This document shows, piece after piece, positions 2,581-59,265 of a stretch of DNA of 61,023 nucleotides. Origin of the DNA: a virus (Duplodnaviria; Heunggongvirae; Uroviricota; Caudoviricetes). Under the pieces are notes generated by a model that did no database searches, was not told the DNA's origin, and was given only the letters and a program-made list of their open reading frames with translations. Position 1 is the stretch's first letter; every line of letters starts with the position of its first letter. A program made the position numbers and the translations under genes. The stretch lies in the IMG/VR virus record IMGVR_UViG_2740892440_000003. One strand, given 5' to 3'.

Positions 2581-3222
2581 TTATAGATAATTTCCGTTTC
2601 CTGTTAATACTCCCTTAGGCACTTGTTTTTGCGCCAGTGTTTGAGTGCCGCGAATTATGTTAATCAGAGGACTTAGTAACGATGATTCCTGGCGGGCATC
2701 AACTTCCTCTGCCATTGCCCTGATGTAGTCTGCGCTTGCAACGTTGTTGTATTCCGTTGCGAAGCAGCATAACAACGTCAGAACATGCTCTGTCGTTATT
2801 TCACTCCAGTTGATGTTGAAAAACTCATCGCCTTTTTTATCGTGTTCGGAATCGAAGATGCTTTGGTGGAGGATGTATTTGCCGGATTCCTTGCGCGGTA
2901 ACTTGATCGCTTTCTGGCGTTCCAACTCCTTGTAAATCTGCATTGCTTCAATTAGTACCGGCCTGCCGTTCATGAAGGGATCACGCAACCTTACACGCTG
3001 GCCAACTCGACCGGTAATAAAGCTGTTTTCCTCTTCCACCAGCACGATAAAACCCTTTTCCTCTTTTTCTCGCAATTCGCGCAGCAGCTGGAGTTCCATA
3101 TCGCGGCGGCGTTCAGGGTAGCTGGTCCGCTCAGCCATTATCAGCTCATTGTTGATCCATGCAGCAGTCATTGACGCCGGTTTGCCGACGCTCATTGAAA
3201 CAACGCATATTTTCTTATCCAT
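2581..3222 (-). CDS. hypothetical protein immediately upstream of and co-oriented with the SIR2 gene (operon partner, or an equivalent of P1 mat)
   Basis: ATG at 3222 (the track ORF begins at an upstream GTG, 3249); 213 aa; 56-bp gap to the SIR2 start. Contains a deviant P-loop-like VSMSVGKP and an acidic hhhhEEE stretch (FIVLVEEEN). No confident family assignment. Confidence 0.5.
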   Translation of the reverse strand: MDKKICVVSMSVGKPASMTAAWINNELIMAERTSYPERRRDMELQLLRELREKEEKGFIVLVEEENSFITGRVGQRVRLRDPFMNGRPVLIEAMQIYKELERQKAIKLPRKESGKYILHQSIFDSEHDKKGDEFFNINWSEITTEHVLTLLCCFATEYNNVASADYIRAMAEEVDARQESSLLSPLINIIRGTQTLAQKQVPKGVLTGNGNYL

Positions 3223-3503
3223 AGCGCCCCTACAAAAAAGAAAAGCCACCAGCGGCGGCTTAGCAATACAACTGAAGGTAGCGCCCGGTACTCAGACTGT
3301 GCCGTCCATGGAATATTTGAAAAGGGATCCATCCGTACCGGGCTTGATGTGATTTTGGCAGAAGTAATTTGTCAGATGTCAATTTTTTTATCTGTAAAAA
3401 TGCTATAAACCAATATTTTTATTATTTTTATATGGTTGTAGTAGTAGAGTCTGGGCTATTCCTGCGTCCGGTCTTGATGACCACAAATCACGGAGATTGA
3501 TTA

Positions 3504-3953
3504 ATGAAAAATCGTAGTTTCAACATTATCGCTTCTATTGCTATGGCTCTAATGTTAACTGGGTGTAAACAGTCAGAGATTGATAAACTCTCACTTATCG
3601 GTGAAGACAAGAGTTATCTTGAAGAACAGGACGAAGCCACTTTTGAAAAACGGACTCCAGACATAGAACTTTTTGCATTATACGATAAATCGTCACCTGA
3701 CGCTCAGGAACCACATACCACAGGAATGTTGATTAATGGCAAGGTTGAGTTGAGCATGACAACAAAAGTTGGCAAATATACCTTTATGCAATTAGATGAA
3801 ATGCTTACAAAAGAGTATGGGAAACCTGTTGCGACGAAGGACCATATCTTTGATAAGGCTGCAATCTCTGGTTTGGACTGCATTGAAACTAAAACCTGTG
3901 GTGCTGGTAAGTATTATGAAGTATTCCGAGGAAGGATCGGTTTGTATTATTGA
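3504..3953 (+). CDS. lipoprotein (149 aa)
   Basis: Signal peptide ending in lipobox LTGC; divergent from the SIR2 operon across an AT-rich promoter region. Confidence 0.55.
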   Translation: MKNRSFNIIASIAMALMLTGCKQSEIDKLSLIGEDKSYLEEQDEATFEKRTPDIELFALYDKSSPDAQEPHTTGMLINGKVELSMTTKVGKYTFMQLDEMLTKEYGKPVATKDHIFDKAAISGLDCIETKTCGAGKYYEVFRGRIGLYY

Positions 3954-4103
3954 TTAATGGAGCTGGTTATTTGTACGAAAAAGAAGGGGTTGCATTGCTT
4001 ACTATCACGGAAAAACAATTAAAAGTTGCTCGTCTGGAAGAGGACAAAAAACATTAACAAACAGGGGCATACGCGCCCCAATATTTTAAAAATAATAAAT
4101 ATA

Positions 4104-4664
4104 TTAGTGCATGATATTTGCCATCTCATAGGCGTCAGCCAGCAACCCCATCTCTGACTTGTTCAGCAGGGTGAATTCTTTCTTGCCTCCAACCACGCCA
4201 TCGGCATGAACAGGGACCAGCCAGGGGTATTTTTCTCTTACTTCAGCCGGTGCTGCATGCTGGTGGTGCCATCTACAAAGGGGCAATTGCTTTTTGTGAC
4301 AACCAGGCGTGGTACGACCGGAGATATGGTGCAGGGACACCTCTTCAGATATTACTCCATGCATATAGCAGGCAATGCAGGGGAGAGCGCCAAGAGCATT
4401 GGCTATGCGCCGTTCCTCTGCCGTCGGTGTTCGCCCCTTCAAGCCACGAGATTTTATTTTTACCGCACTTTTCCGCTTTTTACTGGCTGGTGGGCGCTCT
4501 TTCTGTTTAGCGATACGGCGTTCGATAGGATCCCGCATTTTCTGATATTGCGATTCTCGCCAGGCGGGGTCAGCCAACTTTTCCCGTTGCCGAGCGATCG
4601 CTCGTTCTCTGGCTGCCTTCTGCCACTCGCGGCGCTGTTCAAGTTTTTGTTCGATTGTTTTCAT
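4104..4664 (-). CDS. ref: Ref, recombination enhancement function (HNH-type endonuclease)
   Basis: Translation from the internal Met (MKTIEQKLEQRREWQKAARERAIARQ...) matches P1 Ref as I recall it; about 186 aa; Cys/His-rich HNH region (CIACYMHG...HHISGR...CHKKQ). Confidence 0.85.
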   Translation of the reverse strand: MKTIEQKLEQRREWQKAARERAIARQREKLADPAWRESQYQKMRDPIERRIAKQKERPPASKKRKSAVKIKSRGLKGRTPTAEERRIANALGALPCIACYMHGVISEEVSLHHISGRTTPGCHKKQLPLCRWHHQHAAPAEVREKYPWLVPVHADGVVGGKKEFTLLNKSEMGLLADAYEMANIMH

Positions 4665-4907
4665 ATGGCAAAAAAAAGGCGGCCTAATGGCCGCCAATGA
4701 TGTCAAGGAGTGAAGTAATGGCAACGTCTTCGTAGTTGACAAAAACTGCGGCTAAATTATATCAACAAATTAGAGCAATAAAAGATATTTCACTTCATGC
4801 TTGTAACGTTTTTACTTCAATACCTATGTGCTATACTCCTTTTTGATTGATTGGATGCGGAATACAATCCCGCTCTTTTGTGCAGCCTGGCATCTTGCCA
4901 GGCTTTT

Positions 4908-5219
4908 TTATTTCATCATGGAAGCTGTTAACGCTTTGGATCTTGCTGAACTGATTGAAAGGGCATTGTTTACCTTACCCAGGAGTTCGCCAAATTCCGC
5001 CATCACTCTAGTAAGCCCGCGCCGCGCTTCCTCCTCCGTTGCATTCATCACAAAATGTTCAGCACTCCGCATGCTTTTAACGGGGAACGCAACAGATATC
5101 GAGTCGATATCAGGCATCCTGTCGCTCAACTTTACGGTGACAATGACAGATGGTGACTGAATTTGAGAGCTTACGGACAGCACCACATATTTTCCGTCTA
5201 TTTTGAAATCCTTCCGCAT
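4908..5219 (-). CDS. hypothetical protein in the P1 cra/c8 position between cre and ref
   Basis: 103-codon ORF co-oriented with cre and ref; position corresponds to the small cra/c8 genes of P1; sequence not recognised. Confidence 0.3.
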   Translation of the reverse strand: MRKDFKIDGKYVVLSVSSQIQSPSVIVTVKLSDRMPDIDSISVAFPVKSMRSAEHFVMNATEEEARRGLTRVMAEFGELLGKVNNALSISSARSKALTASMMK

Positions 5220-5269: not shown

Positions 5270-6301
5270 CTAATCGCCATCTTCCAGCAGGCGCACCATT
5301 GCACCCGTTTCACTATCCAGGTTACGAATGTAGTTCATGACAATATTTACGTTGGTCCAGCCACCAGCTTGCATGATCTCCGGTATTGAAACTCCGGCGC
5401 GGGCCATATCTCGCGCGGCACCGACACGGGCACTATGTCCAGACCAGGCCAGGTATCGCTGACCAGAGTCATCTTTTGCCCCGTAAATCAATCGGTGAGT
5501 TGCTTCAAAAATCCCTTCCAGGGCGCGAGTTGATAGCTGGCTGGTGGATGATGGCGCGGCAACACCATTTTTTCTGACGCGGCAAAACAGGTAGTTATTC
5601 GGATCATCAGCTACACCAGAGACAGAAATCCATCGCTCAACCAGTTTAGTTACCCCCAGGCTAAGTGCCTTCTTTACACCAGCGGTGCTAACCAGCGTTT
5701 TCGTTCTGCCAATATGGATTAACATTCTCCCACCGTCAGTACGTGAGATATCTTTAACCCTGATCCTGGAAATTTCGGCTATACGTAACAGGGTGTTATA
5801 AGCAATCCCCAGAAATGCCAGATTACGTATATCCTGGCAGCGATCGCTATTTTCCATGAGTGAACGAACCTGGTCGAAATCAGTGCGTTCGAACGCCAGC
5901 GCCTGTTTTGCACGCTCACCGGCATCAACGTTTTCTTTTCGGATCCGTCGCATGACCAGTGAAACAGCATTGCTGTCACTTGGTCGTGGCAGCCCGGACC
6001 GACGATGAAGCATATTTAGCTGGCCCAAATGTTGCTGGATAGTTTTCACTGCCAGACCGCGCGCCTGAAGATATAGAAGATAATCTCGAACATCTTCAGG
6101 TTCTGCGGGAAACCACTTCCGGTTATTCAACTTGCACCATGCCGCCCACGACCGGCAAACGGACAGAAGCATTTTCCAGGTATGCTCAGAAAACGCCTGG
6201 CGATCCCTGAACATGTCCATCAGGTTCTTGCGAACCTCATCACTCGTTGCATCGACCGGTAATGCAGGCAAATTTTGGTGTACGGTCAGTAAATTGGACA
6301 T
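5270..6301 (-). CDS. cre: Cre site-specific tyrosine recombinase
   Basis: 343-aa translation (MSNLLTVHQNLPALPVDATSDEVRKNLMDMFRDRQAF...MVRLLEDGD) is, to my recollection, essentially identical to P1 Cre. Confidence 0.97.
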   Translation of the reverse strand: MSNLLTVHQNLPALPVDATSDEVRKNLMDMFRDRQAFSEHTWKMLLSVCRSWAAWCKLNNRKWFPAEPEDVRDYLLYLQARGLAVKTIQQHLGQLNMLHRRSGLPRPSDSNAVSLVMRRIRKENVDAGERAKQALAFERTDFDQVRSLMENSDRCQDIRNLAFLGIAYNTLLRIAEISRIRVKDISRTDGGRMLIHIGRTKTLVSTAGVKKALSLGVTKLVERWISVSGVADDPNNYLFCRVRKNGVAAPSSTSQLSTRALEGIFEATHRLIYGAKDDSGQRYLAWSGHSARVGAARDMARAGVSIPEIMQAGGWTNVNIVMNYIRNLDSETGAMVRLLEDGD

Positions 6302-6896: not shown

Positions 6897-7134
6897 TAGT
6901 TTTGCCGCCGTTACGTAATACGACTTTGGATTCACTATTTAATGTGTCTTCAGCGTTGTAGAGCGGCTCAGAAGGAAATGAGCAAACAGGGAAACCTTAT
7001 ACAACGGCATTACAGCTATGCATTGCTCATCTTACACACAGCGCAATGTTGTTAGATTACCCCAGCATGGATCATGGGTGAAACAGTAGGTCAGAGCTTC
7101 AGGCTCTGTGTTGTCAATACAGTGAGGCATAATT

Positions 7135-7344
7135 ATGGCTTTCATTCAACCAACCATCGACGACGTTAGACATTGCTCTAACGCTTTATCTGTAGACCCT
7201 GCCGAAACCGACGCTGCCCGCGCCATTGCTGAACACTACTCAAAGATATCCAATCAGGAGTACCGCATCACCCAAGACGACCTGGATGACCTCACTGACA
7301 CAATCGAATATCTCATGGCAACTAACCAGTTAGACTCACAATAA
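7135..7344 (+). CDS. coi: Coi, C1 inactivator
   Basis: 69-aa ORF immediately upstream of c1, same size and position as P1 coi. Confidence 0.75.
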   Translation: MAFIQPTIDDVRHCSNALSVDPAETDAARAIAEHYSKISNQEYRITQDDLDDLTDTIEYLMATNQLDSQ

Positions 7345-7454
7345 ATGCACTAATAAATCTATTATTTTTGTTTGATCCCTCTATAATATAGGTCAGTAAT
7401 GACCGGTTTTCTCAGCCGGGCGTTATTGACCATGTCAATTCTGGAGGAGGATCA

Positions 7455-8306
7455 ATGATAAATTATGTCTACGGCGAACAACTGTACCAGGAGTTCGTCA
7501 GCTTCAGGGATCTCTTTCTAAAAAAAGCTGTTGCACGCGCCCAACACGTTGATACCGCCAGCGACGGTCGTCCTGTACGCCCGGTTGTCGTTCTACCGTT
7601 CAAAGAAACGGACAGCATTCAGGCTGAAATTGATAAATGGACTTTAATGGCGCGGGAACTGGAACAGTACCCAGACCTCAATATCCCAAAGACTATTTTA
7701 TATCCAGTGCCTAACATCCTTCGCGGTGTGCGTAAGGTTACAACTTATCAGACAGAAGCTGTGAACAGCGTCAACATGACCGCTGGCCGCATTATTCACC
7801 TGATTGATAAGGACATTCGCATCCAGAAAAGCGCGGGGATCAATGAGCACAGTGCGAAATACATAGAGAACCTGGAAGCAACAAAAGAGCTAATGAAGCA
7901 GTACCCGGAGGATGAAAAATTCCGTATGCGTGTACACGGCTTTAGCGAAACAATGCTGCGCGTCCATTACATTTCCAGTAGCCCTAACTACAATGATGGT
8001 AAATCAGTTAGTTACCATGTGCCGCTGTGTGGTGTGTTTATCTGCGATGAAACTCTCCGTGATGGAATCATCATCAACGGTGAATTCGAGAAAGCAAAAT
8101 TTAGCCTTTATGACTCTATAGAACCGATCATCTGCGACCGCTGGCCGCAGGCAAAAATATATCGCCTGGCAGATATTGAAAATGTAAAAAAACAAATTGC
8201 CATCACTCGCGAAGAGAAAAAGGTCAAATCAGCCGCATCAGTTACGCGCAGCCGTAAAACCAAGAAGGGGCAGCCAGTAAACGACAACCCCGAAAGCGCG
8301 CAATAA
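7455..8306 (+). CDS. c1: C1 repressor of lysogeny
   Basis: 283-aa translation (MINYVYGEQLYQEFVSFRDLFLKKAVARAQHVD...NDNPESAQ) matches P1 C1 as I recall it; divergent from cre across loxP, as in P1. Confidence 0.95.
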   Translation: MINYVYGEQLYQEFVSFRDLFLKKAVARAQHVDTASDGRPVRPVVVLPFKETDSIQAEIDKWTLMARELEQYPDLNIPKTILYPVPNILRGVRKVTTYQTEAVNSVNMTAGRIIHLIDKDIRIQKSAGINEHSAKYIENLEATKELMKQYPEDEKFRMRVHGFSETMLRVHYISSSPNYNDGKSVSYHVPLCGVFICDETLRDGIIINGEFEKAKFSLYDSIEPIICDRWPQAKIYRLADIENVKKQIAITREEKKVKSAASVTRSRKTKKGQPVNDNPESAQ

Positions 8307-8338
8307 ATTATGCCCGGCATCAACCGGGCATTCTTCCA

Positions 8339-9457
8339 TTATTCAGCCGCCACCGGTTTTAACAAGCCAGCATCGAGCAGTTTACGCGTCAACCACTGCT
8401 GGCCTTTACCCGTTAATTGAGGCGTCAACCGTATCTGGTAGCCATCTTCATCATCCAGCACCACTTCTTTCACCGTGAAATACCCCGCGTTGATGTACTG
8501 CTGGAACGGCACATTTTTACGTCCACCGGACGCTATCAGGATGCCGTTCTCCCGTAACCAGGCAAACAGCGCGTTTTGCTTAAGTCCAACAACCTTTGCA
8601 AAATTCCCAATCAGGATCCCTTTAGCTACTGATACCCGGTCGGCAAAATCGACCTTAGGAGCGGCGGCCACCAGCTGCTGATTGAGCTGGTGGGCTTTCT
8701 GTTCCAGAAGCTGCTTTTGTTCAGCCAGTTCGGCAGCCAGGCGTAGGGCTTCAGGAAGCGTCTGGGGGATTGCGATCGGTTGCTGTTCTTTTTGTCGGAA
8801 GTAGCTGTCTTCCAGTTTTTCAAAGAATGCCCATGCCTGATCGGTTTCGAGCATTTTAGCGTGGCGGGCTGCGCCGCGTTCTGTCCAGAGGGTGAGTGAG
8901 CGAACATTGCGAGCAATTTTTACAGAGTAGTTTAAAGCTACTCTGTGCTTCAACTCGCGCAATGATTCTCCTTCAACTTTGAAAAAGTGCTTCCCTTCAA
9001 CAAAGCGTACTTTGTTCTCATGATGATTTTGGCGAATACGGATTGTTTCTGTCCCATACCCTCTAGCAAGAGTCTCGGTTGTCACTACACGCGCTCCCTG
9101 CCATTCCAGAACGGGAATTTCATCAGACTGATTCTGAACAACCACCAGCTCCGATTCCTGAACTGAAGGTGCATGAATTTTTTCTGATTTAACGTTAGTT
9201 GCTTTCATTCTGTGTGCCTCCTTGCGTGCTTCGGCTGCGACGGTTGCGTAATTCAGATGACCCTGTTCGAGCAGGTATTCGCGGATATCAGACAACAGGA
9301 TACGGTGAACCGAGTTCTTGTCCTTTCTCCGGTAAAGTTGTTTGGTGATCATGAAGTAGTTGGCAATAACGCCTGGTATATCCCTGGTACTGATACAGGC
9401 AGTGTGCTGTTCAATTGCCTCGATCATCTCTTCACGGGTGACTAATGACGTTCTCAT
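8339..9457 (-). CDS. antirepressor-like protein (Ant/KilAC C-terminal domain), paralog of the gene at 57393-58427
   Basis: 372 aa. N-terminus (TREEMIEAIEQHTACISTRDIPGVIANYFMIT) and C-terminal ~130 aa (PKVDFADRVS...GILIGNFAKVVGLKQNALFAWLRENGIL...QIRLTPQLTGKGQQWLTRKLLDAGLLKPVA) are nearly identical to the 57393-58427 product. Start overlaps the upstream icd-like stop. Confidence 0.7.
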   Translation of the reverse strand: MRTSLVTREEMIEAIEQHTACISTRDIPGVIANYFMITKQLYRRKDKNSVHRILLSDIREYLLEQGHLNYATVAAEARKEAHRMKATNVKSEKIHAPSVQESELVVVQNQSDEIPVLEWQGARVVTTETLARGYGTETIRIRQNHHENKVRFVEGKHFFKVEGESLRELKHRVALNYSVKIARNVRSLTLWTERGAARHAKMLETDQAWAFFEKLEDSYFRQKEQQPIAIPQTLPEALRLAAELAEQKQLLEQKAHQLNQQLVAAAPKVDFADRVSVAKGILIGNFAKVVGLKQNALFAWLRENGILIASGGRKNVPFQQYINAGYFTVKEVVLDDEDGYQIRLTPQLTGKGQQWLTRKLLDAGLLKPVAAE

Positions 9458-9675
9458 AGTCCCTCCTGAGCAGAAGCGTTAACAGGGAGGCACCAGTAAC
9501 TGAGAGAATTGCGTGAATCAGTGGAAAAACGGGCAGAGAAAATACATGGGGCGTCAGGAAGCTGAGAGCGGGCCTCATCTTCTGTTGGTGCAATAACGAA
9601 GTGATAGTGACGTTTTTGGCAGGAGTAAAAGCGCCAGATAAATTCAGGATGAGTTGGGGTAGGGATAGTAGCCAT
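9454..9675 (-). CDS. Icd-like small protein, second copy
   Basis: 73-aa segment MATIPTPTHPEFIWRFYSCQKRHYHFVIAPTEDEARSQLPD... closely parallels the 58424-58645 product. The long 9454-10017 track ORF is probably an uninterrupted leader fused in frame. Confidence 0.5.
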   Translation of the reverse strand: MATIPTPTHPEFIWRFYSCQKRHYHFVIAPTEDEARSQLPDAPCIFSARFSTDSRNSLSYWCLPVNASAQEGL

Positions 9676-9993
9676 ATTGGCAGCCTCCTTAGACGTTGGT
9701 ATGTAACCACCGCAGAAGAGACCAATCTTGCTGGCGGTGGACTGTACGGAGTTGGCCTTACTGGCGTCCAAGGTAACCAGCCTACCCGAAGGTAGCCCCA
9801 TACAGCCCACCATTGTAGAGGTGTGCGTGTACGCCGATACAAAAAAAGACGCGAGCGGCGTCTGTATCGCCTTAGACTTAAGCGGGAGGCCAATCCCGGC
9901 ACCCGTTTTAATGAGGTGCCTGATAAGCATAAACCGAAAATGCCTCAAGGCGCAAGAGGTCAGGTTCAATGTAACATCGGTAGTTAAAAAACA

Positions 9994-10010
9994 CAATTCA
10001 TTAGAGCAAA
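9994..10010 (-). promoter_or_regulatory. C1 operator-like site (14/17) upstream of the second icd/ant module
   Basis: caattcattagagcaaa; same position relative to the icd/ant module as the operator at 58950-58966. Confidence 0.45.
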
Positions 10011-10013
10011 TGT

Positions 10014-11498
10014 TCATTCATTAAGCCATGCCAGAGCTTCATCAACCTGCGCTTCGTCTTCGACGCTAAGCACTTCATCCTGGGGAACATAATCCGCCAG
10101 CATAGCGAAACAATATGTATCCCAATGGTCTGGTGAGTGCAGGTTGAGTTTTTTCTTCATATCCTCCTTACTCATCACCTTCCATTGACCTGCGGAGTTA
10201 ATCCCTACAGGGATTTTCGACGCTTCCTCAATAGTTTCATTACCCTTATCCAGTCTCATACGACCTGATTTTACGGCCTCTGCGGCTTGAACGTTGGCAT
10301 AAGCACGTTTATCAAAGTACAGGCTCTTATCTTCACGGCTATGCATCTTTTTACCCCAGCGTATACGCTGTACGGTAATACCATAATACTCGTACATCAG
10401 ATCCGCCGTTGCTTTACCCAGCCCATCGCCGTCTATCGCTATGGTGATATTTGGGAATCGCTCAGGATTACATTCTGCGAAAATTTTGGCGGCAAGCTGC
10501 GTTTCTGTAACGTCTGTGTATTCCAGCATTCGATAGTTGATTACACGGCGTTTATTTCTCTGGCCGGACACCATCATGATATTGATAACGGACTTATCCC
10601 GTCCCGTACCACCAGCAACGTCCACACATGCAAGCCAGCCCCATCCTTTGGCAATCTTGACTTTCCGCCGCGTCGCACGTTCAACCTCATCACGTCCAAG
10701 AAGGAAGCCATCCTGTGATTTAGGGAATAGTCCGCGTACCTTAATCATGTACATAGGGTTATCACGCCCGCCGTACTCCGCCAGCTTCATTTTGATAAAT
10801 GCTGGCGTTACCAGCGGTGATTCCTCACTGTTAAGCGTGATCGCCGTATAAACGCCATCAGGGTTACCAGGACGCTTGGCCAGTTTATGGTGAGTATCGT
10901 AGAAATAGCCGCTTGGGCGTGTAGGCTGTGACAGTAATAAGATGCGGTTATCCTGTCCGGTAAGAGCACCAGTGATGATACCGAAAGCTCTATCACTGAC
11001 ACCGGAGGCTTCATCGATAATATACAGAAGATGATCTGCGTGTTCACCGGCGAGAGCTTCTTCACTTCCCAGACGAAAGCCCTTCGGTACTACAGTCCAT
11101 ACACCTTTACCAGTAACCTCATAGAAAGCGGTTTCTGTCAGAACAAAATAATCAGCAAGCCATGGAAAACGGCTGGTGGCAGTAGCCCAGTTTATCTTGA
11201 TGTACTTGAATATACCGGTCATTACCTGCTGAATTTTGTTCGCAACGATAATGGCGCGGGCACCGGGATACATGATTATGAACAACATGATCATGATAGA
11301 AGTCATGTCTGATTTCCCGGTACCGTGACCAGACGAAACAGATGTCTTGCTACCCTGTTCCTGCACAGACTCAATAATCAGATCCTGCTGCCAGGTAGGT
11401 GTTTTGCCGAACAAAACATCAGCGGCAGCAATCCAGTCATAACGATATAGCGCCACCAGCTCGCGCCAACGTGGATCCGTTACGCAACTTCTGGCCAT
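10014..11498 (-). CDS. pacB: PacB, terminase large subunit
   Basis: 494 aa, the size of P1 PacB; lies downstream of pacA with a 1-nt overlap. Confidence 0.85.
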
Positions 11499-12691
11499 TA
11501 ATCATCATCCCCGTATAGCTTGCGGGTAACTTCTTCGTCTTCCTCCTCGTCTTCGTCCAGGTCTTGTTCCAGCCATGGGTCGTTTGATACACCTTCAGTA
11601 TCAACATCTCCATAACCGCCTGTATCAACGATATCGGCGATTTCTTCCCTACGCTGCTCAATCCACAATGCGGCATCGGCGCGGCGGTTGGCGGCCCGTT
11701 CTCGCGCAACTTTGTCCAGATCTTCAAGAGAAGGGCCACCGACGGCTGTTTGCCTTTCCTCATCATCGGTATTGGTCTTAGGAGCACGCAGATCGGCTTT
11801 GATTTGCTCCAGCATCAGGGGCGGCACTTTTCCGCCATGCGCCTCGATGAATTCAGCTGCTTCCAGCACTGACCAGTTATTTTCACGCTTTCGTTCGTAT
11901 GCCAGCTTAACAATGCCAGCTTGCCCCATAGATAAAGCGTGCTTTTCCGCCTCCCGGCTTTCTTTTCGATAGTTATTCCGGATGCTGTAAATGGTGTTGA
12001 TCAGGCTGCTTATCTGCGCGGAACAGCTGTTTAGCATGCTCGCGATACGATATTCAGGCGGAGTCCCTTCATCATCGTCTTTTTGCTGATCGCGCATTTC
12101 CTGCACCAGACGAATACACGTATCCCTGGCGTTCTCCAGCATAAGGAGATGAGAAAGAGACTTTTCCAGAAGAGTGGTTTCCAGAACATCGGCCCCGGAC
12201 CGACGCAACATAGCGCGAGCGGCCTTCCGCGCTTCAACGTTATCTATCAGGTAATCGCCAGCTTCGAATTCAAAGCGTTCACCATCATCATCCAGGGTGT
12301 CGCGTTCCAGGCGATCACGTAAGGTCCGGTGGGCGCGGGTGATCACGTCATGATCATCTGAACGATCATTTATGCGCTTATTTTGGCGCTTCGCATTCTC
12401 GACTGCGGCACTGACAACGGCATTAACTCTCTGTTTTTCCGCTATTTCAGCCGCAATATGATCACCTGCATGTTGATCATTAGAGTGATCAATGATCATG
12501 CTTTTTAGTGGCTTCCTGACTGGCTTATTTGGCTTGCGGCTGTCCGCAGTCCTGGTGTCTTCTTTGAAGGCACGGAGATAACGACGTGCAGTATTAGGGT
12601 TAAGATTAAACTCGGCGGCATACTGTGCGATGGTGTAACCACCATCTCGCGCCAGGCGAGCAAAATTCTTCTTGTGATCGTCCCAGGTCAC
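11498..12691 (-). CDS. pacA: PacA, terminase small subunit (pac recognition)
   Basis: 397 aa, the size of P1 PacA; acidic C-terminus; contains the pac-type GATC hexamer clusters. Confidence 0.85.
12340..12500. other. pac: pac packaging site (two clusters of TGATCA/G hexamers)
   Basis: GATC-containing hexamers clustered at 12341-12370 and 12459-12497 inside pacA, as described for the Dam-regulated P1 pac site. Confidence 0.6.
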
Positions 12692-36764: not shown

Positions 36765-36840
36765 TGGTGCCGGTTAACGGACTCGAACCGCTGACATCCT
36801 GCTTACAAGGCAGACGCTCTACCAACTGAGCTAAACCGGC
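36765..36840 (-). tRNA. trnT: tRNA-Thr (anticodon UGU)
   Basis: GCCGGTTTAGCTCAGTTGGTAGAGCGTCTGCCTTGTAAGCAGGATGTCAGCGGTTCGAGTCCGTTAACCGGCACCA; canonical cloverleaf with encoded CCA. Confidence 0.85.
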
Positions 36841-36842
36841 AT

Positions 36843-36918
36843 TGGCGATGGTGGATGGATTTGAACCATCGACCCGTTGATTAACAGTCAACCGCTCTAA
36901 TCGCTGAGCTACACCATC
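36843..36918 (-). tRNA. trnA: tRNA-Asn (anticodon GUU)
   Basis: GATGGTGTAGCTCAGCGATTAGAGCGGTTGACTGTTAATCAACGGGTCGATGGTTCAAATCCATCCACCATCGCCA; perfect 7-bp acceptor stem, GUU anticodon. Confidence 0.85.
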
Positions 36919-55552: not shown

Positions 55553-56398
55553 TTACCCTCTGAATCCTGCCGGTATACCCCATTGTTCGTTATCTTTATT
55601 TTTGGCTAAAACCGCATTAAGAGCTTCGTTTACCGTCATGCAATGCGGCAGATTATCGAAGTTTGATATCCCGCCAATATCAGGAGAACGCTTGTTCTTC
55701 AGGTAAGTATATTTCCGCGCTGCCGCCTCTACTTTCTGCTTGAACTCATGTTTTTGAGCGCGTTTTTTGGATAACCGCAGATTGTCAGCCTTTGCTTTTG
55801 CCTCAGCGATCCATGAAGTCAATTTTTTGAGTCTGCTCGTTCCGGCACCGCCGGAAACTGATCTTTTTGTTTTTTTAACTTGTGACTTCTTATTCTTTAT
55901 TGCCACGTCATCCTGACAGGGGGAGGGGGTATCATTTTGACATGGGGGTGTGGATAAAAAATTAAATAAAGCCAATGTCTTAGCGAGAACCGCTTTAACT
56001 TTGGTTGCCGCTGAAGAGATCTTTAATTTGCTTTCAATCAGCGCATTTTTGGCTTGTTGTGCGAAGGCCAAAAAGGATGGTGTAAACCGGTACAGGTTAG
56101 CGCGACGTTCACGGTGATCGCCGATAACAATCTCTACCGTCAGGATTCCTTTGTTTACAGCTTCACGGAATGCACGAACGACGGTTGATTGGCTATAACC
56201 AGTTTCTGCCGCGATCATGCGGTGAGGCTTGTGAATGAAGTATTCACTGGTTGTTGCCGCAAGATTTGCACATTGCGACAGGATATGCCCGGCGCTACGG
56301 GATAGACCGGAGTGTGTTACAAAGCAGGCCAATTCATAGCCAGAAAAAGTAAAATCGCTCATCGTTATACAGCTCAGGAAAGTGACTTTAGCCAGCAT
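55553..56398 (-). CDS. repL: RepL-like lytic replicon initiator
   Basis: 281 aa directly downstream of kilA; HTH-like GYSQSTVVRAFREAVNKGIL. Confidence 0.6.
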   Translation of the reverse strand: MLAKVTFLSCITMSDFTFSGYELACFVTHSGLSRSAGHILSQCANLAATTSEYFIHKPHRMIAAETGYSQSTVVRAFREAVNKGILTVEIVIGDHRERRANLYRFTPSFLAFAQQAKNALIESKLKISSAATKVKAVLAKTLALFNFLSTPPCQNDTPSPCQDDVAIKNKKSQVKKTKRSVSGGAGTSRLKKLTSWIAEAKAKADNLRLSKKRAQKHEFKQKVEAAARKYTYLKNKRSPDIGGISNFDNLPHCMTVNEALNAVLAKNKDNEQWGIPAGFRG

Positions 56399-56427
56399 TA
56401 CAATGCTGGTGGTTCTTACTACGTCTG

Positions 56428-57228
56428 TTAGCGCGTCGCCGCGACAGGCACCAGCACACCAGCATCAAGCAATCGCTTCATCAGCCACTGCTGACCTTTG
56501 CCGGTTATACGAGTCGTGAAAGAAATCCTGCTTCCATTGCTTGTATCGATCACGGTTTCTTTAAGGGTGAAATACCCACGGGATATGTATTCTTGTTTGG
56601 GGACGTTCCTGCGTTCACCGGTTGCGATCAGAATTCCGTTATCACGCAACCAGGTGAAGAGATAGTTTTGGCCCAGGCCGAGGACTTTGGCATAGTTGCC
56701 GATTAGAACCCCGCTGGCGGTAGCAACGCGTTCGGCGAATTCGACTTTAGGTGCATCCATCAGCATTTTTTGCTCCAGCCGTTGCTTTTGCTCTGCCAGG
56801 TCGGCAGCCAAACGGAGAGCTTCAGGGAGACTCTGCGGAATAGCAGGTTGTAATCTTCCAGCTCGATAGTCGATAAATGTCTGGTTTACCTTCAGCCGAA
56901 ACGCGGGAGAAATCCAACCAGCGTACTCCACTGCGAGCAATTCATGGGCAAAAGAGCCGCCGCCACGGCCTTCGAACGAAACTATGCAATTCTGCATAGT
57001 TTCTTTTTCAAGCTCTTCGATGAGCTGTTTAGCTGACAGCGTTCTTAGCCATTGAGCTGGCGCTTTATGGGCACCGAGTCCGCTCGCTCTGTGTAGAGCA
57101 TTAAGGTTGTAACGGCCAGCGCGGTCGGTCGTAATTTCAACACCACAAATAACAGGCAGAGTGGTTGAAGGATCGACATTTTGATGAAGGTTTGATATAT
57201 TCATATCCGCATTGAATGTTTGTTGCAT
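56428..57228 (-). CDS. kilA: KilA (KilA-N DNA-binding domain plus antirepressor-type C-terminal domain)
   Basis: 266 aa; N-terminal KilA-N-like region; C-terminal domain shared with the two Ant-like proteins. Confidence 0.7.
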   Translation of the reverse strand: MQQTFNADMNISNLHQNVDPSTTLPVICGVEITTDRAGRYNLNALHRASGLGAHKAPAQWLRTLSAKQLIEELEKETMQNCIVSFEGRGGGSFAHELLAVEYAGWISPAFRLKVNQTFIDYRAGRLQPAIPQSLPEALRLAADLAEQKQRLEQKMLMDAPKVEFAERVATASGVLIGNYAKVLGLGQNYLFTWLRDNGILIATGERRNVPKQEYISRGYFTLKETVIDTSNGSRISFTTRITGKGQQWLMKRLLDAGVLVPVAATR

Positions 57229-57297
57229 TTTTTCTCCAAATTTGCATCAACCTTCAATCACCAGCTCGAAATGGTGATTCTTTGCACTTAGAAAACA

Positions 57298-57314
57298 AAA
57301 TTTATTAGAGCAAA
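57298..57314 (-). promoter_or_regulatory. C1 operator (16/17), Op53-type upstream of kilA-repL
   Basis: aaatttattagagcaaa. Confidence 0.65.
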
Positions 57315-57392
57315 TTTTTCTGACCCGATCCAGATCGGGTTGGTCGAACTGCTCAGAAACCTGCCAGTTTGCTGGCAGGTTTTTTTCTTTTG

Positions 57393-58427
57393 TTAACCTA
57401 TTGCTACTGGTTTTAACAAACCAGCATCAAGTAGCTTGCGAGTTAACCACTGCTGGCCTTTACCCGTTAATTGGGGCGTCAGCCGTATCTGGTAGCCATT
57501 TTCATCATCCAGCACCACTTCTTTCACCGTGAAATACCCGGCGTTGATGTACTGTTGGCGCGGTACGTTTTTGCGCGTTCCAAAAGCCATGAGAATGCCG
57601 TTCTGGCGCAACCATGAGAACAGGGCGTTTTGCTTAAGTCCAACGACCTTTGCAAAGTTCCCGATCAGGATTCCATTAGCCGCTGATACCCGGTCGGCAA
57701 AATCGACTTTAGGGGCTGCGGCCACCAGCTGTTGTTCCAACTGCATTTTCTGTTCTGCTAACTTGGCAGCCAGGCGTAGGGCTTCTGGTAATGTTTGGGG
57801 GATCGATGGGGTAGGGGAGTTTGCCTGCTGCAATTCTTCCAGTTTGTCGATCAGCGAACGGCGGACCGCTTTTGACTCGCGCGCGGCAACTCGCAGAGCT
57901 TGTTTGTAGGTCATGGTTATAATATCTATTTCTGCGCCGTTTTTTTGACCTACGAAAATTTCGTAGGTTTCTCCTTCAAGCTCATCCTTAACTCTGGCAA
58001 TGAAATCATTGTTGCGAACTGGTTTTTCGCTACATAATTTCCGTGCCTCATTGACCATCTTCAACAATGTTTGGCTGTCGATTGTGTCTCCGGTGTTGGG
58101 GATGACATTCAGGGCTGGTGCTGGCGTAGCTGAAGCAACAGGTGCTGGTTTTTCAACATTTAAATTATTACCGGTCATTCTATGTGCCTCCTTTCTCATT
58201 TCTGCTGCCACTGTTGCGTAACGTAGACGTCCTTGTTCAATCAAATAATCCCTGATCTCGGCTATCAGTAGCTTGTTGATCACAGCCTTATCTGTTCGGG
58301 TATAAAAACGTCTGGTTATCATGAAATAGTTGGCAATTGCGCCGGGGATCTCCCGTGTCGGCATACAGGCAGTATGCAGGGCGATCGCTTCGGCTATGTC
58401 ATTACGGGTGACGAGAGGTTTTTTCAT
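57393..58427 (-). CDS. ant1: antirepressor Ant (immunity I region)
   Basis: 344 aa, downstream of icd with overlapping stop/start; antirepressor C-terminal domain. Confidence 0.75.
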   Translation of the reverse strand: MKKPLVTRNDIAEAIALHTACMPTREIPGAIANYFMITRRFYTRTDKAVINKLLIAEIRDYLIEQGRLRYATVAAEMRKEAHRMTGNNLNVEKPAPVASATPAPALNVIPNTGDTIDSQTLLKMVNEARKLCSEKPVRNNDFIARVKDELEGETYEIFVGQKNGAEIDIITMTYKQALRVAARESKAVRRSLIDKLEELQQANSPTPSIPQTLPEALRLAAKLAEQKMQLEQQLVAAAPKVDFADRVSAANGILIGNFAKVVGLKQNALFSWLRQNGILMAFGTRKNVPRQQYINAGYFTVKEVVLDDENGYQIRLTPQLTGKGQQWLTRKLLDAGLLKPVAIG

Positions 58428-58645
58428 AAACCCCCCTGAACGTCGGCAGAGAAGGGGAGGTTCCAGTAACTAAGTGAATTGCGCGAGTTAGTTGAAAAAC
58501 GGGCAGTAAAAATGCAGGGTCCATCAGGCAATTGAGAGCGTGCTTCGTCTTCTGTTGCTGCGATAACGAAGTGATAGTGGTGTTTTTTACAGGAATAGAA
58601 ACGCCAGATGAATTCTTGGCGTGCGCAAGGATTGGCATTAACCAT
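58424..58645 (-). CDS. icd: Icd (interference with cell division), small protein upstream of ant
   Basis: 73 aa in the canonical position of P1 icd. Confidence 0.65.
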   Translation of the reverse strand: MVNANPCARQEFIWRFYSCKKHHYHFVIAATEDEARSQLPDGPCIFTARFSTNSRNSLSYWNLPFSADVQGGL

Positions 58646-58649
58646 AGTT

Positions 58650-58900
58650 ACGGCCTCACAATCAGGTTTAACAACCTGCTACCCGCTGCTAAACAGGTGG
58701 CAGGACGTGACGGGGTTAGCAGACTGGCGATTGTGATACCAGCAGGCCGAAGCCTCCCCATCACGCCCCACCATAATTTGGGCGTAACGCGGTTTTACGG
58801 ACACAAAAATACCGCAATATCAGATATCTGCGGCTGTCCGCACAATCATTCAGGCTGCTAAACCCGGTCGCAGAATTTGCTACGACGGCGGAACTATAAG
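58650..58900 (-). ncRNA. c4: c4 antisense RNA / leader region (boundaries approximate)
   Basis: Structured GC-rich leader between the Op51-type operator and icd, where P1 encodes c4; exact ends not determined. Confidence 0.3.
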
Positions 58901-58949
58901 CCTGAACGATTAAAAGGTCAATATGATGCGAAAAGATAGCATTCGCGAC

Positions 58950-58966
58950 TTAAAAATACAAATTTA
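58950..58966 (-). promoter_or_regulatory. C1 operator (16/17), Op51-type upstream of the c4-icd-ant operon
   Basis: aaatttattagagcaac. Confidence 0.65.
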
Positions 58967-59265
58967 TTAGAGCAACATGCTGTTGGTATAGGTTTCCATA
59001 TATGCGCATATAAAATTGGAAATTGTATATAATTAGAGAGTGAGTTAGTGTCAATATTAAACCAACTCAACTAAATCAAGTGTAAATTATTAGCAGAGCA
59101 TATAATGTCGATAGTTGATTTTTTTTAGACTTAATATAACGCAGCTTCAGCAATGAAGATCGTATTTTTTATAATAATTGATATACATCAATAGGATTAA
59201 TCTTGTTTGTATTTGGCTTATGTGATAGATTTTCTTGGATTATATTTTTTTCTGGGATGATTCTA

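Follow-up and report, generated by a model that had tools for sequence, protein, structure and literature searches.

The immunity of phage P1 is a three-part system (immC, immI and immT), and the difference between the C4 RNAs of P1 and P7 is the classic case of an immunity specificity encoded by RNA. IMG/VR virus record IMGVR_UViG_2740892440_000003, a stretch of 61,023 nucleotides referred to here, at its full length, as the window, raises the question of what a second set of immI-type elements is for in a genome that already has one. The source of the window is a P1-like (Punavirus) phage-plasmid, with vB_EcoM-673R5 as best match (99.1% identity over window positions 7000-12000). Its canonical immI holds the usual site (sim to kilA-repL; 57393-58976), while a second icd/ant module of 1.67 kb occupies 8339-10013 on the minus strand, between c1 and pacB. 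A first-pass annotation made from the sequence alone had described in this module two open reading frames (ORFs; 8339-9457 and 9454-9675), an operator-like site (9994-10010) and a structured leader, all of which were found again at those positions. It had also suggested two antisense-RNA specificities in one genome, and at sequence level this is supported by the differing a and b recognition sites, the matching loops of each C4 and covariation among alleles. We consider it likely that the 1.67 kb form a complete, selectively maintained second immI-type operon with its own C4 specificity and the mechanism proposed below. The features of the module, in the order of transcription, are the following.

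9994-10010, minus strand: C1-operator-like site TTTGCTCTAATGAATTG, positional homolog of P1 Op51/Oc4, beginning 4 nt past the pacB stop codon
9968-9996, minus strand: promoter-like site, homolog of P1 P2c4 (P51a), with -35 TTGTGT at 9991-9996, a 17-nt spacer and -10 TACATT at 9968-9973
9926-9955, minus strand: promoter-like site, homolog of P1 P1c4 (P51b), with -35 TTGCGC at 9950-9955 and -10 TATGCT at 9926-9931
9842-9919, minus strand: IsrK-type leader RNA with two hairpins, a1, b1 and an intrinsic terminator (Rfam, terminator scan, fold)
9887-9893, minus strand: a1, TTGGCCT, in the loop of leader hairpin 2
9870-9877, minus strand: b1, GTCTAAGG, in the leader
9847-9863, minus strand: stem of the leader intrinsic terminator, accompanied by a T-run (terminator scan)
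9733-9811, minus strand: C4-type antisense RNA, its length of 79 nt deduced from homology to P1 C4 (77 nt)
9766-9773, minus strand: b', CCTTGGAC, in a hairpin loop of C4
9752-9758, minus strand: a', AGGCCAA, in a single-stranded junction of C4
9719-9725, minus strand: a2, TTGGTCT, in the mRNA target region 9684-9725
9687-9694, minus strand: b2, GTCTAAGG, overlapping the icd Shine-Dalgarno sequence AAGGAGG (9684-9690)
9454-9675, minus strand: icd-like ORF (icd-2), 73 aa
8339-9457, minus strand: ant-like gene (ant-2), 372 aa

Architecture of the second module

The structured leader was resolved further by Rfam into an isrK-type leader followed by a C4 RNA. The C4 family (RF01695) matches 9730-9817 on the minus strand with 75.9 bits (gathering score 45) over the full length of the model (positions 1-87), and the isrK family (RF01394) matches 9842-9919 on the same strand with 60.8 bits (gathering score 50; model positions 1-77). 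The predicted fold of this C4 (minimum free energy -41.6 kcal/mol, z -3.5) consists of a long closing stem around two hairpins, in agreement with the Rfam model; both a' and b' are left unpaired, as in P1 C4, and compensatory changes across 40 unique relatives support 17 of its 27 stem pairs. The first-pass annotation had also proposed an alignment of the leader to those of P1 and P7, and in this alignment each annotated P1 feature has a counterpart in the second module. The module thus has the same order as P1/P7 immI, namely an alignable operator, two promoters, a1/b1, C4 and a2/b2 over the icd ribosome-binding site, followed by an icd/ant ATGA overlap and a nested Ant2 start at codon 84; it differs in its position at pacB-c1 instead of beside sim and kilA-repL, in being extra to a canonical immI, in its a/b sites, in the ORF6N middle of its Ant, and in a leader that scores as isrK and not as c4-a1b1 and has a stronger terminator.

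In the canonical immI, Rfam reports C4 at 58693-58778 (67.6 bits) and c4-a1b1 at 58847-58899 (55.5 bits), both on the minus strand. At relaxed thresholds the c4-a1b1 model also matches the second leader weakly (20.5 bits, 9879-9932), and the isrK model matches the canonical P7-type leader with 43.7 bits, below the gathering score of 50 (58805-58886, minus strand). Since the two models cross-match, "IsrK" and "a1b1 leader" appear to be two descriptions of homologous elements. Rfam clan CL00128 includes c4-a1b1 and C4, and not isrK. The isrK match in the canonical leader takes in a terminator-like hairpin with a T-run between b1 and c4 (58805-58840), and the GenBank annotation of P1 lists no terminator between b1 and c4.

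The same leader has also been labelled as coding. In the window the icd frame stays open over the 114 codons ahead of icd-2, its translation matches Pfam Phage_ASH (PF10554) with 44.5 bits against a cut-off of 26 (9640-9915, minus strand), and PGAP places the label "ash family protein" on the leader, often as a pseudogene. On this basis the leader might be read as coding for a protein of the Ash family, either ahead of Icd or fused with it, with RNA motifs that are only incidental. We regard this as extremely improbable, as the long frame is peculiar to the window and extends only 6-11 codons ahead of icd in seven homologous leaders (RCS47, JL22, pSJ_98, LR-48, P1, P7 and the immI of the window itself), and the variation of the leader obeys RNA pairing rules; the Phage_ASH and "ash family" labels would then sit on a non-coding RNA. 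The same labels are found at 4813-4932 in pSJ_98, at 4853-4972 in pLR-48_1 and at 2562-2879 in a third locus (L131).

Upstream of the leader, the operator-like site TTTGCTCTAATGAATTG matches the C1 operator consensus ATTGCTCTAATAAATTT at 14 of 17 positions, and sites with at most three mismatches to this consensus occur 14 times in the window against 0.30 expected. It aligns with the annotated Oc4 of P1 and P7 and is kept in RCS47 and JL22 as TTTGCTCTAATAAATTG, so that it reads as a predicted C1 operator overlapping the upstream promoter-like site, as in P1/P7 immI. This P51a-like site aligns position by position with the annotated P1 P2c4 (TTGTAT/TATCTT). The P51b-like site is aligned with the annotated P1 P1c4 (TTGACC/TATAGT), and the start predicted from it lies near 9919. 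We infer both promoters from alignment to the annotated P1 promoters only.

Downstream of C4, the a2/b2 layout is the same as that annotated in P1. The a':a2 pairing comprises six Watson-Crick pairs and one G-U pair out of seven, and b':b2 seven Watson-Crick pairs and one G-U pair out of eight. The stop codon of icd-2 overlaps the start codon of ant-2 (ATGA at 9454-9457), which is the layout of translational coupling in P1/P7 immI.

Recognition sites, alleles and distribution

The comparison of the two specificities requires the corresponding elements of the canonical block, which are as follows.

55553-58976, minus strand: canonical immI/kilA/repL block
58640-58976, minus strand: canonical immI leader, with Op51 at 58960-58976
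58855-58861 and 58840-58847, minus strand: a1 and b1 of the canonical leader
58696-58772, minus strand: canonical C4 (77 nt), with b' at 58729-58736 and a' at 58716-58722
58686-58692 and 58656-58663, minus strand: a2 and b2, the canonical mRNA targets
58424-58645, minus strand: canonical icd
57393-58427, minus strand: canonical ant, 344 aa
56428-57228, minus strand: kilA

By alignment, the recognition sites of the canonical immI are identical to those of P7 (a TTAGCAG, b GATTGTGA). Cross-pairing between the two modules was measured in register at the defined a/b sites and calibrated on P1 versus P7; full-length RNAduplex energies of each C4 against each target ignored intramolecular structure, gave large and uninformative values for all pairs, and were replaced. 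Cognate pairs of C4 and target match at 7/7 positions in a and 8/8 in b, and P1 versus P7 shows one mismatch and one G-U in a and two mismatches in b. The P7-type C4 of the window has two mismatches and two G-U pairs in a and four mismatches in b against the targets of the second module, and the second-module C4 has three mismatches in a, and three mismatches and three G-U pairs in b, against the immI targets. The small differences between P1 and P7 immI have been reported as the cause of their heteroimmunity, and because cross-pairing within the window is worse than that between P1 and P7, its two C4 RNAs should not cross-react. Across the 61 kb, paired a/b target sites were found only in the own leader of each module.

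Under the proposed mechanism, transcription would start from one or two promoters beside the C1 operator, which would tie it to the repressor, and most transcripts would end at the leader terminator to yield an IsrK-like RNA bearing a1 and b1. Read-through transcripts would carry the C4-type RNA, which is probably cut out of them as in P1, C4 RNAs being released by RNase P. Through a' and b' this RNA would bind a2 and b2 at the icd ribosome-binding site and block translation of icd-2, and through translational coupling at the ATGA also that of the Ant1/Ant2-like antirepressor. Since the C4 of the canonical immI has other, P7-type recognition sequences, each C4 should lock only its own antirepressor. 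The terminated leader, through a1 and b1, could titrate C4 in cis or in trans, by analogy with IsrK of the Salmonella prophage Gifsy-1. For the second module we infer from these features its transcription, processing, repression in trans, action of Ant-2 on C1 and immunity phenotype, and with them a dual immunity.

The alleles found at the same locus of other phage-plasmids carry this argument further. The window allele has TTGGCCT/TTGGTCT as a and GTCTAAGG as b, both matched by the loops of its own C4. At the same pacB-c1 locus, RCS47 has a TTGAGAC/GTCTCAA and b GTCAAAGG/CCTTTGAC, and JL22 has a TTGAGAC/GTCTCAA and b GCAAAAGG/CCTTTTGC. The change among alleles is thus compensatory in three places at once, a1-a'-a2 and b1-b'-b2 shifting together. 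A wider set of 103 unique IsrK-type leaders was gathered from viral contigs by means of a 15-mer taken from the first hairpins. An a1-a'-a2 triple occurs in 88 of them, compared with 0.13 in a control in which a1 was exchanged among the sequences. The leaders fall into about 30 a/b combinations, and in nearly all of these b1, b' and b2 match as well. Viral contigs contain at least three a alleles at the pacB-c1 locus, and the three sequenced module alleles have three different b sites. Compared with the window allele, RCS47 and JL22 also carry 21 inserted nucleotides ahead of C4 (alignment columns 219-239, between terminator and C4), and in their first C4 hairpin a GAAA loop replaces TTCG, with fully compensated stems.

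Among the alleles, dN/dS ranges from 0.02 to 0.17 for icd-2 and from 0.13 to 0.37 for ant-2, and both genes are under purifying selection. Together with the three-way covariation this argues for a function of the second module. The first-pass annotation had called the proteins of the two modules close paralogs. This holds for Icd at the protein level (81% identity); the synonymous sites of icd are saturated, a dS of about 1.8 between icd-2 and the immI icd of the window indicating that the duplication is not recent, and Ant is a mosaic.

P1, which the first-pass annotation had named as the genome to compare, has only 24 bp between the stop codons of c1 and pacB, and homology to the window ends exactly at both stops. 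The module is missing from P1, P7, SJ46 and phiW39 and present in RCS47, JL22 and 673R5. The 24-bp spacer of P1 shares only short similarities with the module ends (CCGGCAT, AATG), and the difference may be either an insertion here or a deletion in P1. The arrangement had been thought unusual; it is indeed missing from P1, but common, being present in roughly 40% of the P1-like elements in complete E. coli genomes. This fraction comes from a junction-specific query (leader, operator and pacB end): of 606 complete, pacB-bearing E. coli genomes that gave any match, 259 reach a coverage of at least 80%. For the module at full length, this coverage is reached by 279 genomes and 290 PLSDB plasmids. 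The leader allele of the window occurs at 99% identity or more in 134 records, about half of the carriers, and leaders of this family are present in 966 of 5426 genomes, mostly on chromosomes.

These data bear on the proposal that the module has no current function and is carried along as an inert passenger, whether as a duplicate in decay or as a scar of recombination. P1, P7 and SJ46 are viable without the module, which is therefore dispensable, and IS-disrupted and truncated versions exist. Still, such a passenger appears very improbable given that the ORFs are intact and under purifying selection, no regulatory element has been lost, the three copies of each recognition site stay matched from allele to allele through compensatory changes, and the module is found in those 259 complete genomes. 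Some P1-like plasmids carry IS5 or ISVsa5 at or within the module (pLR-48_1, NZ_AP027544, 5141-6109; NZ_CP027199). In pLR-48_1, IS5 stands in place of the pacB side of the leader, and the operator/promoter region is gone.

The insertion at pacB-c1 itself is already known: ant has been annotated there in RCS47 and is mentioned by Venturini et al. 2019 (PMC6906374). RCS47 (FO818745) and pTZ20_1P share the locus and the gene cassette with the window, RCS47 with 92% identity over 91% of the module, and RCS47 differs in its specificity allele (a TTGAGAC, b GTCAAAGG). A search of the literature for work on the function of this module returned only one sentence, in Venturini et al. 2019, which reports at the locus "two short hypothetical orfs and an antirepressor gene" and no RNA genes, operator or specificity. 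The paper on JL22 does not mention pacB, icd or antirepressors, and in the literature searched we found no description of the module's RNA genes, operator, orthogonal specificity or allelic diversification. All parts belong to known families, and what is new here is their reading as a second, orthogonal and allelically diversifying C4 lock.

The antirepressor, its targets and the neighbouring genes

The Icd-like protein is similar to the canonical Icd (E 1e-39 for the identity given above), and both match NCBIfam phage_ICD_like, the second copy with 49.8 bits. The Ant-like protein is 55% identical to the canonical Ant overall (BLASTP): similarity is concentrated in the first ~95 residues, an N-terminus of Ant1 type, and in the C-terminal KilAC domain, with hardly any alignment in between. 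According to Pfam, the Ant-like protein consists of ORF6N and ANT/KilAC (PF03374, 109.9 bits, residues 260-361), the canonical Ant of ANT only, and KilA of KilA-N and ANT. KilA shares the KilAC domain, with 60% identity over 164 aa, which agrees with the three copies of the C-terminal domain, in Ant-like, canonical Ant and KilA, that the first-pass annotation had counted in the window. The family phrog_63 ("anti-repressor Ant") matches the Ant-like protein with 442.7 bits over residues 1-372, and the canonical Ant is also matched over its full length; as the middle regions of both match phrog_1726, these may be distant homologs. An internal in-frame ATG of ant-2 (9206-9208, Met84), preceded by AAGGAGG, corresponds to the codon annotated as the ant2 start in P1. 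This Ant2-type start is conserved together with its Shine-Dalgarno sequence, so the layout for nested Ant1 and Ant2 products appears to be present in the second module. A sequence search of the PDB found no solved homolog of Ant-2.

According to the P1 annotation, Ant antagonises C1 (Ant1/Ant2/C1 complex), and the question is whether Ant-2 does the same. It has to be considered that Ant-2 does not act on C1 and has the repressors of other prophages or satellites as targets, or that it is a Roi-like DNA-binding regulator, the module then serving cross-talk between elements. Its ORF6N middle is unlike that of the canonical Ant, and its homologs are labelled "Roi" in databases. The nearest relatives of the leader and C4 (87%) lie in chromosomal islands with the order integrase-HTH-AntA/B...Icd-primase and share the a site, with different b sites. 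We nevertheless think this rather unlikely, because a C1-operator-like site is present at the homologous position, the N-terminus (residues 1-95, ~65%) and KilAC (~90%) are similar to the canonical Ant (identities estimated by eye), both Ant middles match phrog_1726, and the same type of cassette is the only immI of pSJ_98.

The last point rests on plasmid pSJ_98 of E. coli Sanji (NZ_CP011063), in which the cassette (3485-5150 of the extracted locus) has an ORF6N-type Ant, the same Icd type, an IsrK-type leader and the C1-operator-like site ATTGCTCTAATTATTTT, with 89% identity over ant and icd (70% of the query covered). It differs from the window in that this cassette is the only immI and stands at the canonical position beside kilA, with pacB-c1 empty, and in its recognition sites (a TTGGAAC, b GCAAAAGG). 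The second module can thus be regarded as an immI allele found at a second locus as well.

The islands were examined in the chromosomes of E. coli ACN001 (L162) and O157:H7 G5295 (L163). They are P4-satellite-like, with genes for an integrase, an HTH regulator, an AntA/AntB antirepressor, an Icd-like protein and a primase, and around 2985-3260 of these loci a leader and C4 are 85-88% identical to the second module. The a site is shared with the window (TTGGCCT/AGGCCAA), the b sites differ, and b2 of O157 has one mismatch to b'. In contrast to the second module, Icd-like and then primase genes follow downstream, with no KilAC Ant immediately downstream.

The genes that surround the module in the window are given below.

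5270-6301, minus strand: cre (ORF list)
7135-7344, plus strand: coi (ORF list)
7455-8306, plus strand: c1 (ORF list)
8310-8331: GC-rich terminator-like hairpin for the ant-like transcript, in the 32-bp spacer between the converging ant-like gene and c1 (terminator scan)
10014-11498, minus strand: pacB (ORF list)
11498-12691, minus strand: pacA (ORF list)

The hairpin at 8310-8331, on which the ant-like gene and c1 converge, is kept in RCS47 and JL22, and read-through of a derepressed module would be antisense to c1. At the other end (10011-10016) no terminator separates the pacB stop from the module's operator/promoter, so that late pacAB transcription could enter the leader. Elsewhere in the window, Rfam identifies three tRNA genes (34889-34961, 36768-36840 and 36846-36918, minus strand), which are ordinary in P1-like phages.

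IsrK, induction and the meaning of a second lock

The closest functional parallel is isrK-orf45-anrP of Gifsy-1 in Salmonella, where IsrK supplied in trans raises translation of the antirepressor about 140-fold, and where expression has been shown for IsrK, for a processed downstream RNA of ~80 nt (STnc1160) and for the translationally coupled antirepressor (Hershko-Shalev et al. 2016, PMC4825925). In both systems a terminated IsrK-type leader is complementary to a processed downstream RNA of ~80 nt (by homology, in the window), and a short ORF is coupled to an antirepressor. The Gifsy-1 orf45 overlaps the RNA element and an Icd homolog is lacking at that locus, whereas the second module has a separate Icd-like ORF after C4; the latter also has a C1-operator-like site, and the published Gifsy-1 model is one of activation by IsrK. 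That study (PMC4825925), which validated the pairs IsrK G28:C162 and G31:C159, compared the system to the P4 CI RNA and not to P1 C4, and a 2025 review gives IsrK and c4 as separate entities. The spacing of the two pairs would fit an antiparallel a1:a' duplex if IsrK 26-32 is UUGGCGU, and STnc1160 looks like a C4 homolog. This mapping rests on Rfam consensus numbering, the text of PMC4825925 and the commonest a type in viral contigs, and not on the Gifsy-1 sequence; a contig scan for the Gifsy-1 locus with a 19-mer of the leader gave nearly all chance matches in GC-rich genomes, with only Citrobacter braakii relevant.

The module might serve chiefly for induction, as a switch like that of Gifsy-1 IsrK and not as an immunity determinant, in which the terminated leader RNA accumulates on a signal or on loss of C1 and opens a second, SOS-independent route to derepression. 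This possibility overlaps with the reading as a second immI-type operon and differs from it in the purpose given to the module. It is favoured by a leader above the isrK gathering score with a strong terminator, by the 140-fold effect of IsrK in trans and by the spacing of the Gifsy-1 pairs, which is that expected for a1:a' under the mapping just described. On the other hand, the canonical P1/P7 leader has the same a1/b1 and terminator-like layout (the 43.7-bit isrK match) and yet is known as an immunity locus, and the diversity of sites with three-way covariation resembles a diversification of specificity, for which an internal switch alone would have no need. We therefore hold this alternative to be possible, and clearly less probable than a second immI-type operon.

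Several observations weigh against the latter and keep its assignment at a probable one. The one G-U pair in a2 and the one in b1/b2 make the pairing slightly weaker than the perfect matches of P1 and P7, the operator departs from the consensus at three positions, and both promoter-like sites are weak (at most 8 of 12 consensus positions) and were missed by a consensus promoter scan upstream of the leader, which called no promoter. The middle of Ant-2 (ORF6N) differs from the canonical Ant, and its target may not be C1. Finally, the Gifsy-1 leader RNA is an activator of an antirepressor and not an immunity lock, and the net logic here could be induction control.

A further parallel is the CI RNA of P4 immunity (seqA-CI-seqC), in which a processed leader RNA likewise pairs with repeated sites on both its sides. 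The mechanism of P4 immunity is transcription termination. As the same a site occurs in chromosomal P4-like islands, the C4 RNAs may form a network through which the prophages of a cell, plasmid-borne or integrated, and its satellites regulate one another. That P1-like phage-plasmids accumulate orthogonal C4 locks in an arms race, under whose pressure the second locus diversifies, and take part in such a network is a tentative extension that we rate as doubtful. If true, a two-lock phage would be dominant over its single-lock relatives, escaping their immunity and yet being immune to them.

The second module also links separate literatures, as the Salmonella IsrK looks like the a1/b1 leader of a C4 cassette. 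This would give a simple base-pairing explanation of its published activity and, conversely, experimentally validated pairs for the family. Orthogonal a/b sites that are easy to reprogram could also furnish a toolkit of translational repressors without cross-reaction. For the phages themselves, a second lock that is common in nature and functionally unstudied leads to predictions. A lysogen would silence incoming phages with either type of lock, and a phage that infects a P1/P7-type lysogen without the second C4 could express Ant-2 and escape C1 immunity, resulting in asymmetric immunity. If the second lock works, superinfection exclusion, co-residence and induction would not be predictable from immI and c1 alone in P1-like elements, many of which, among those concerned, carry resistance genes.

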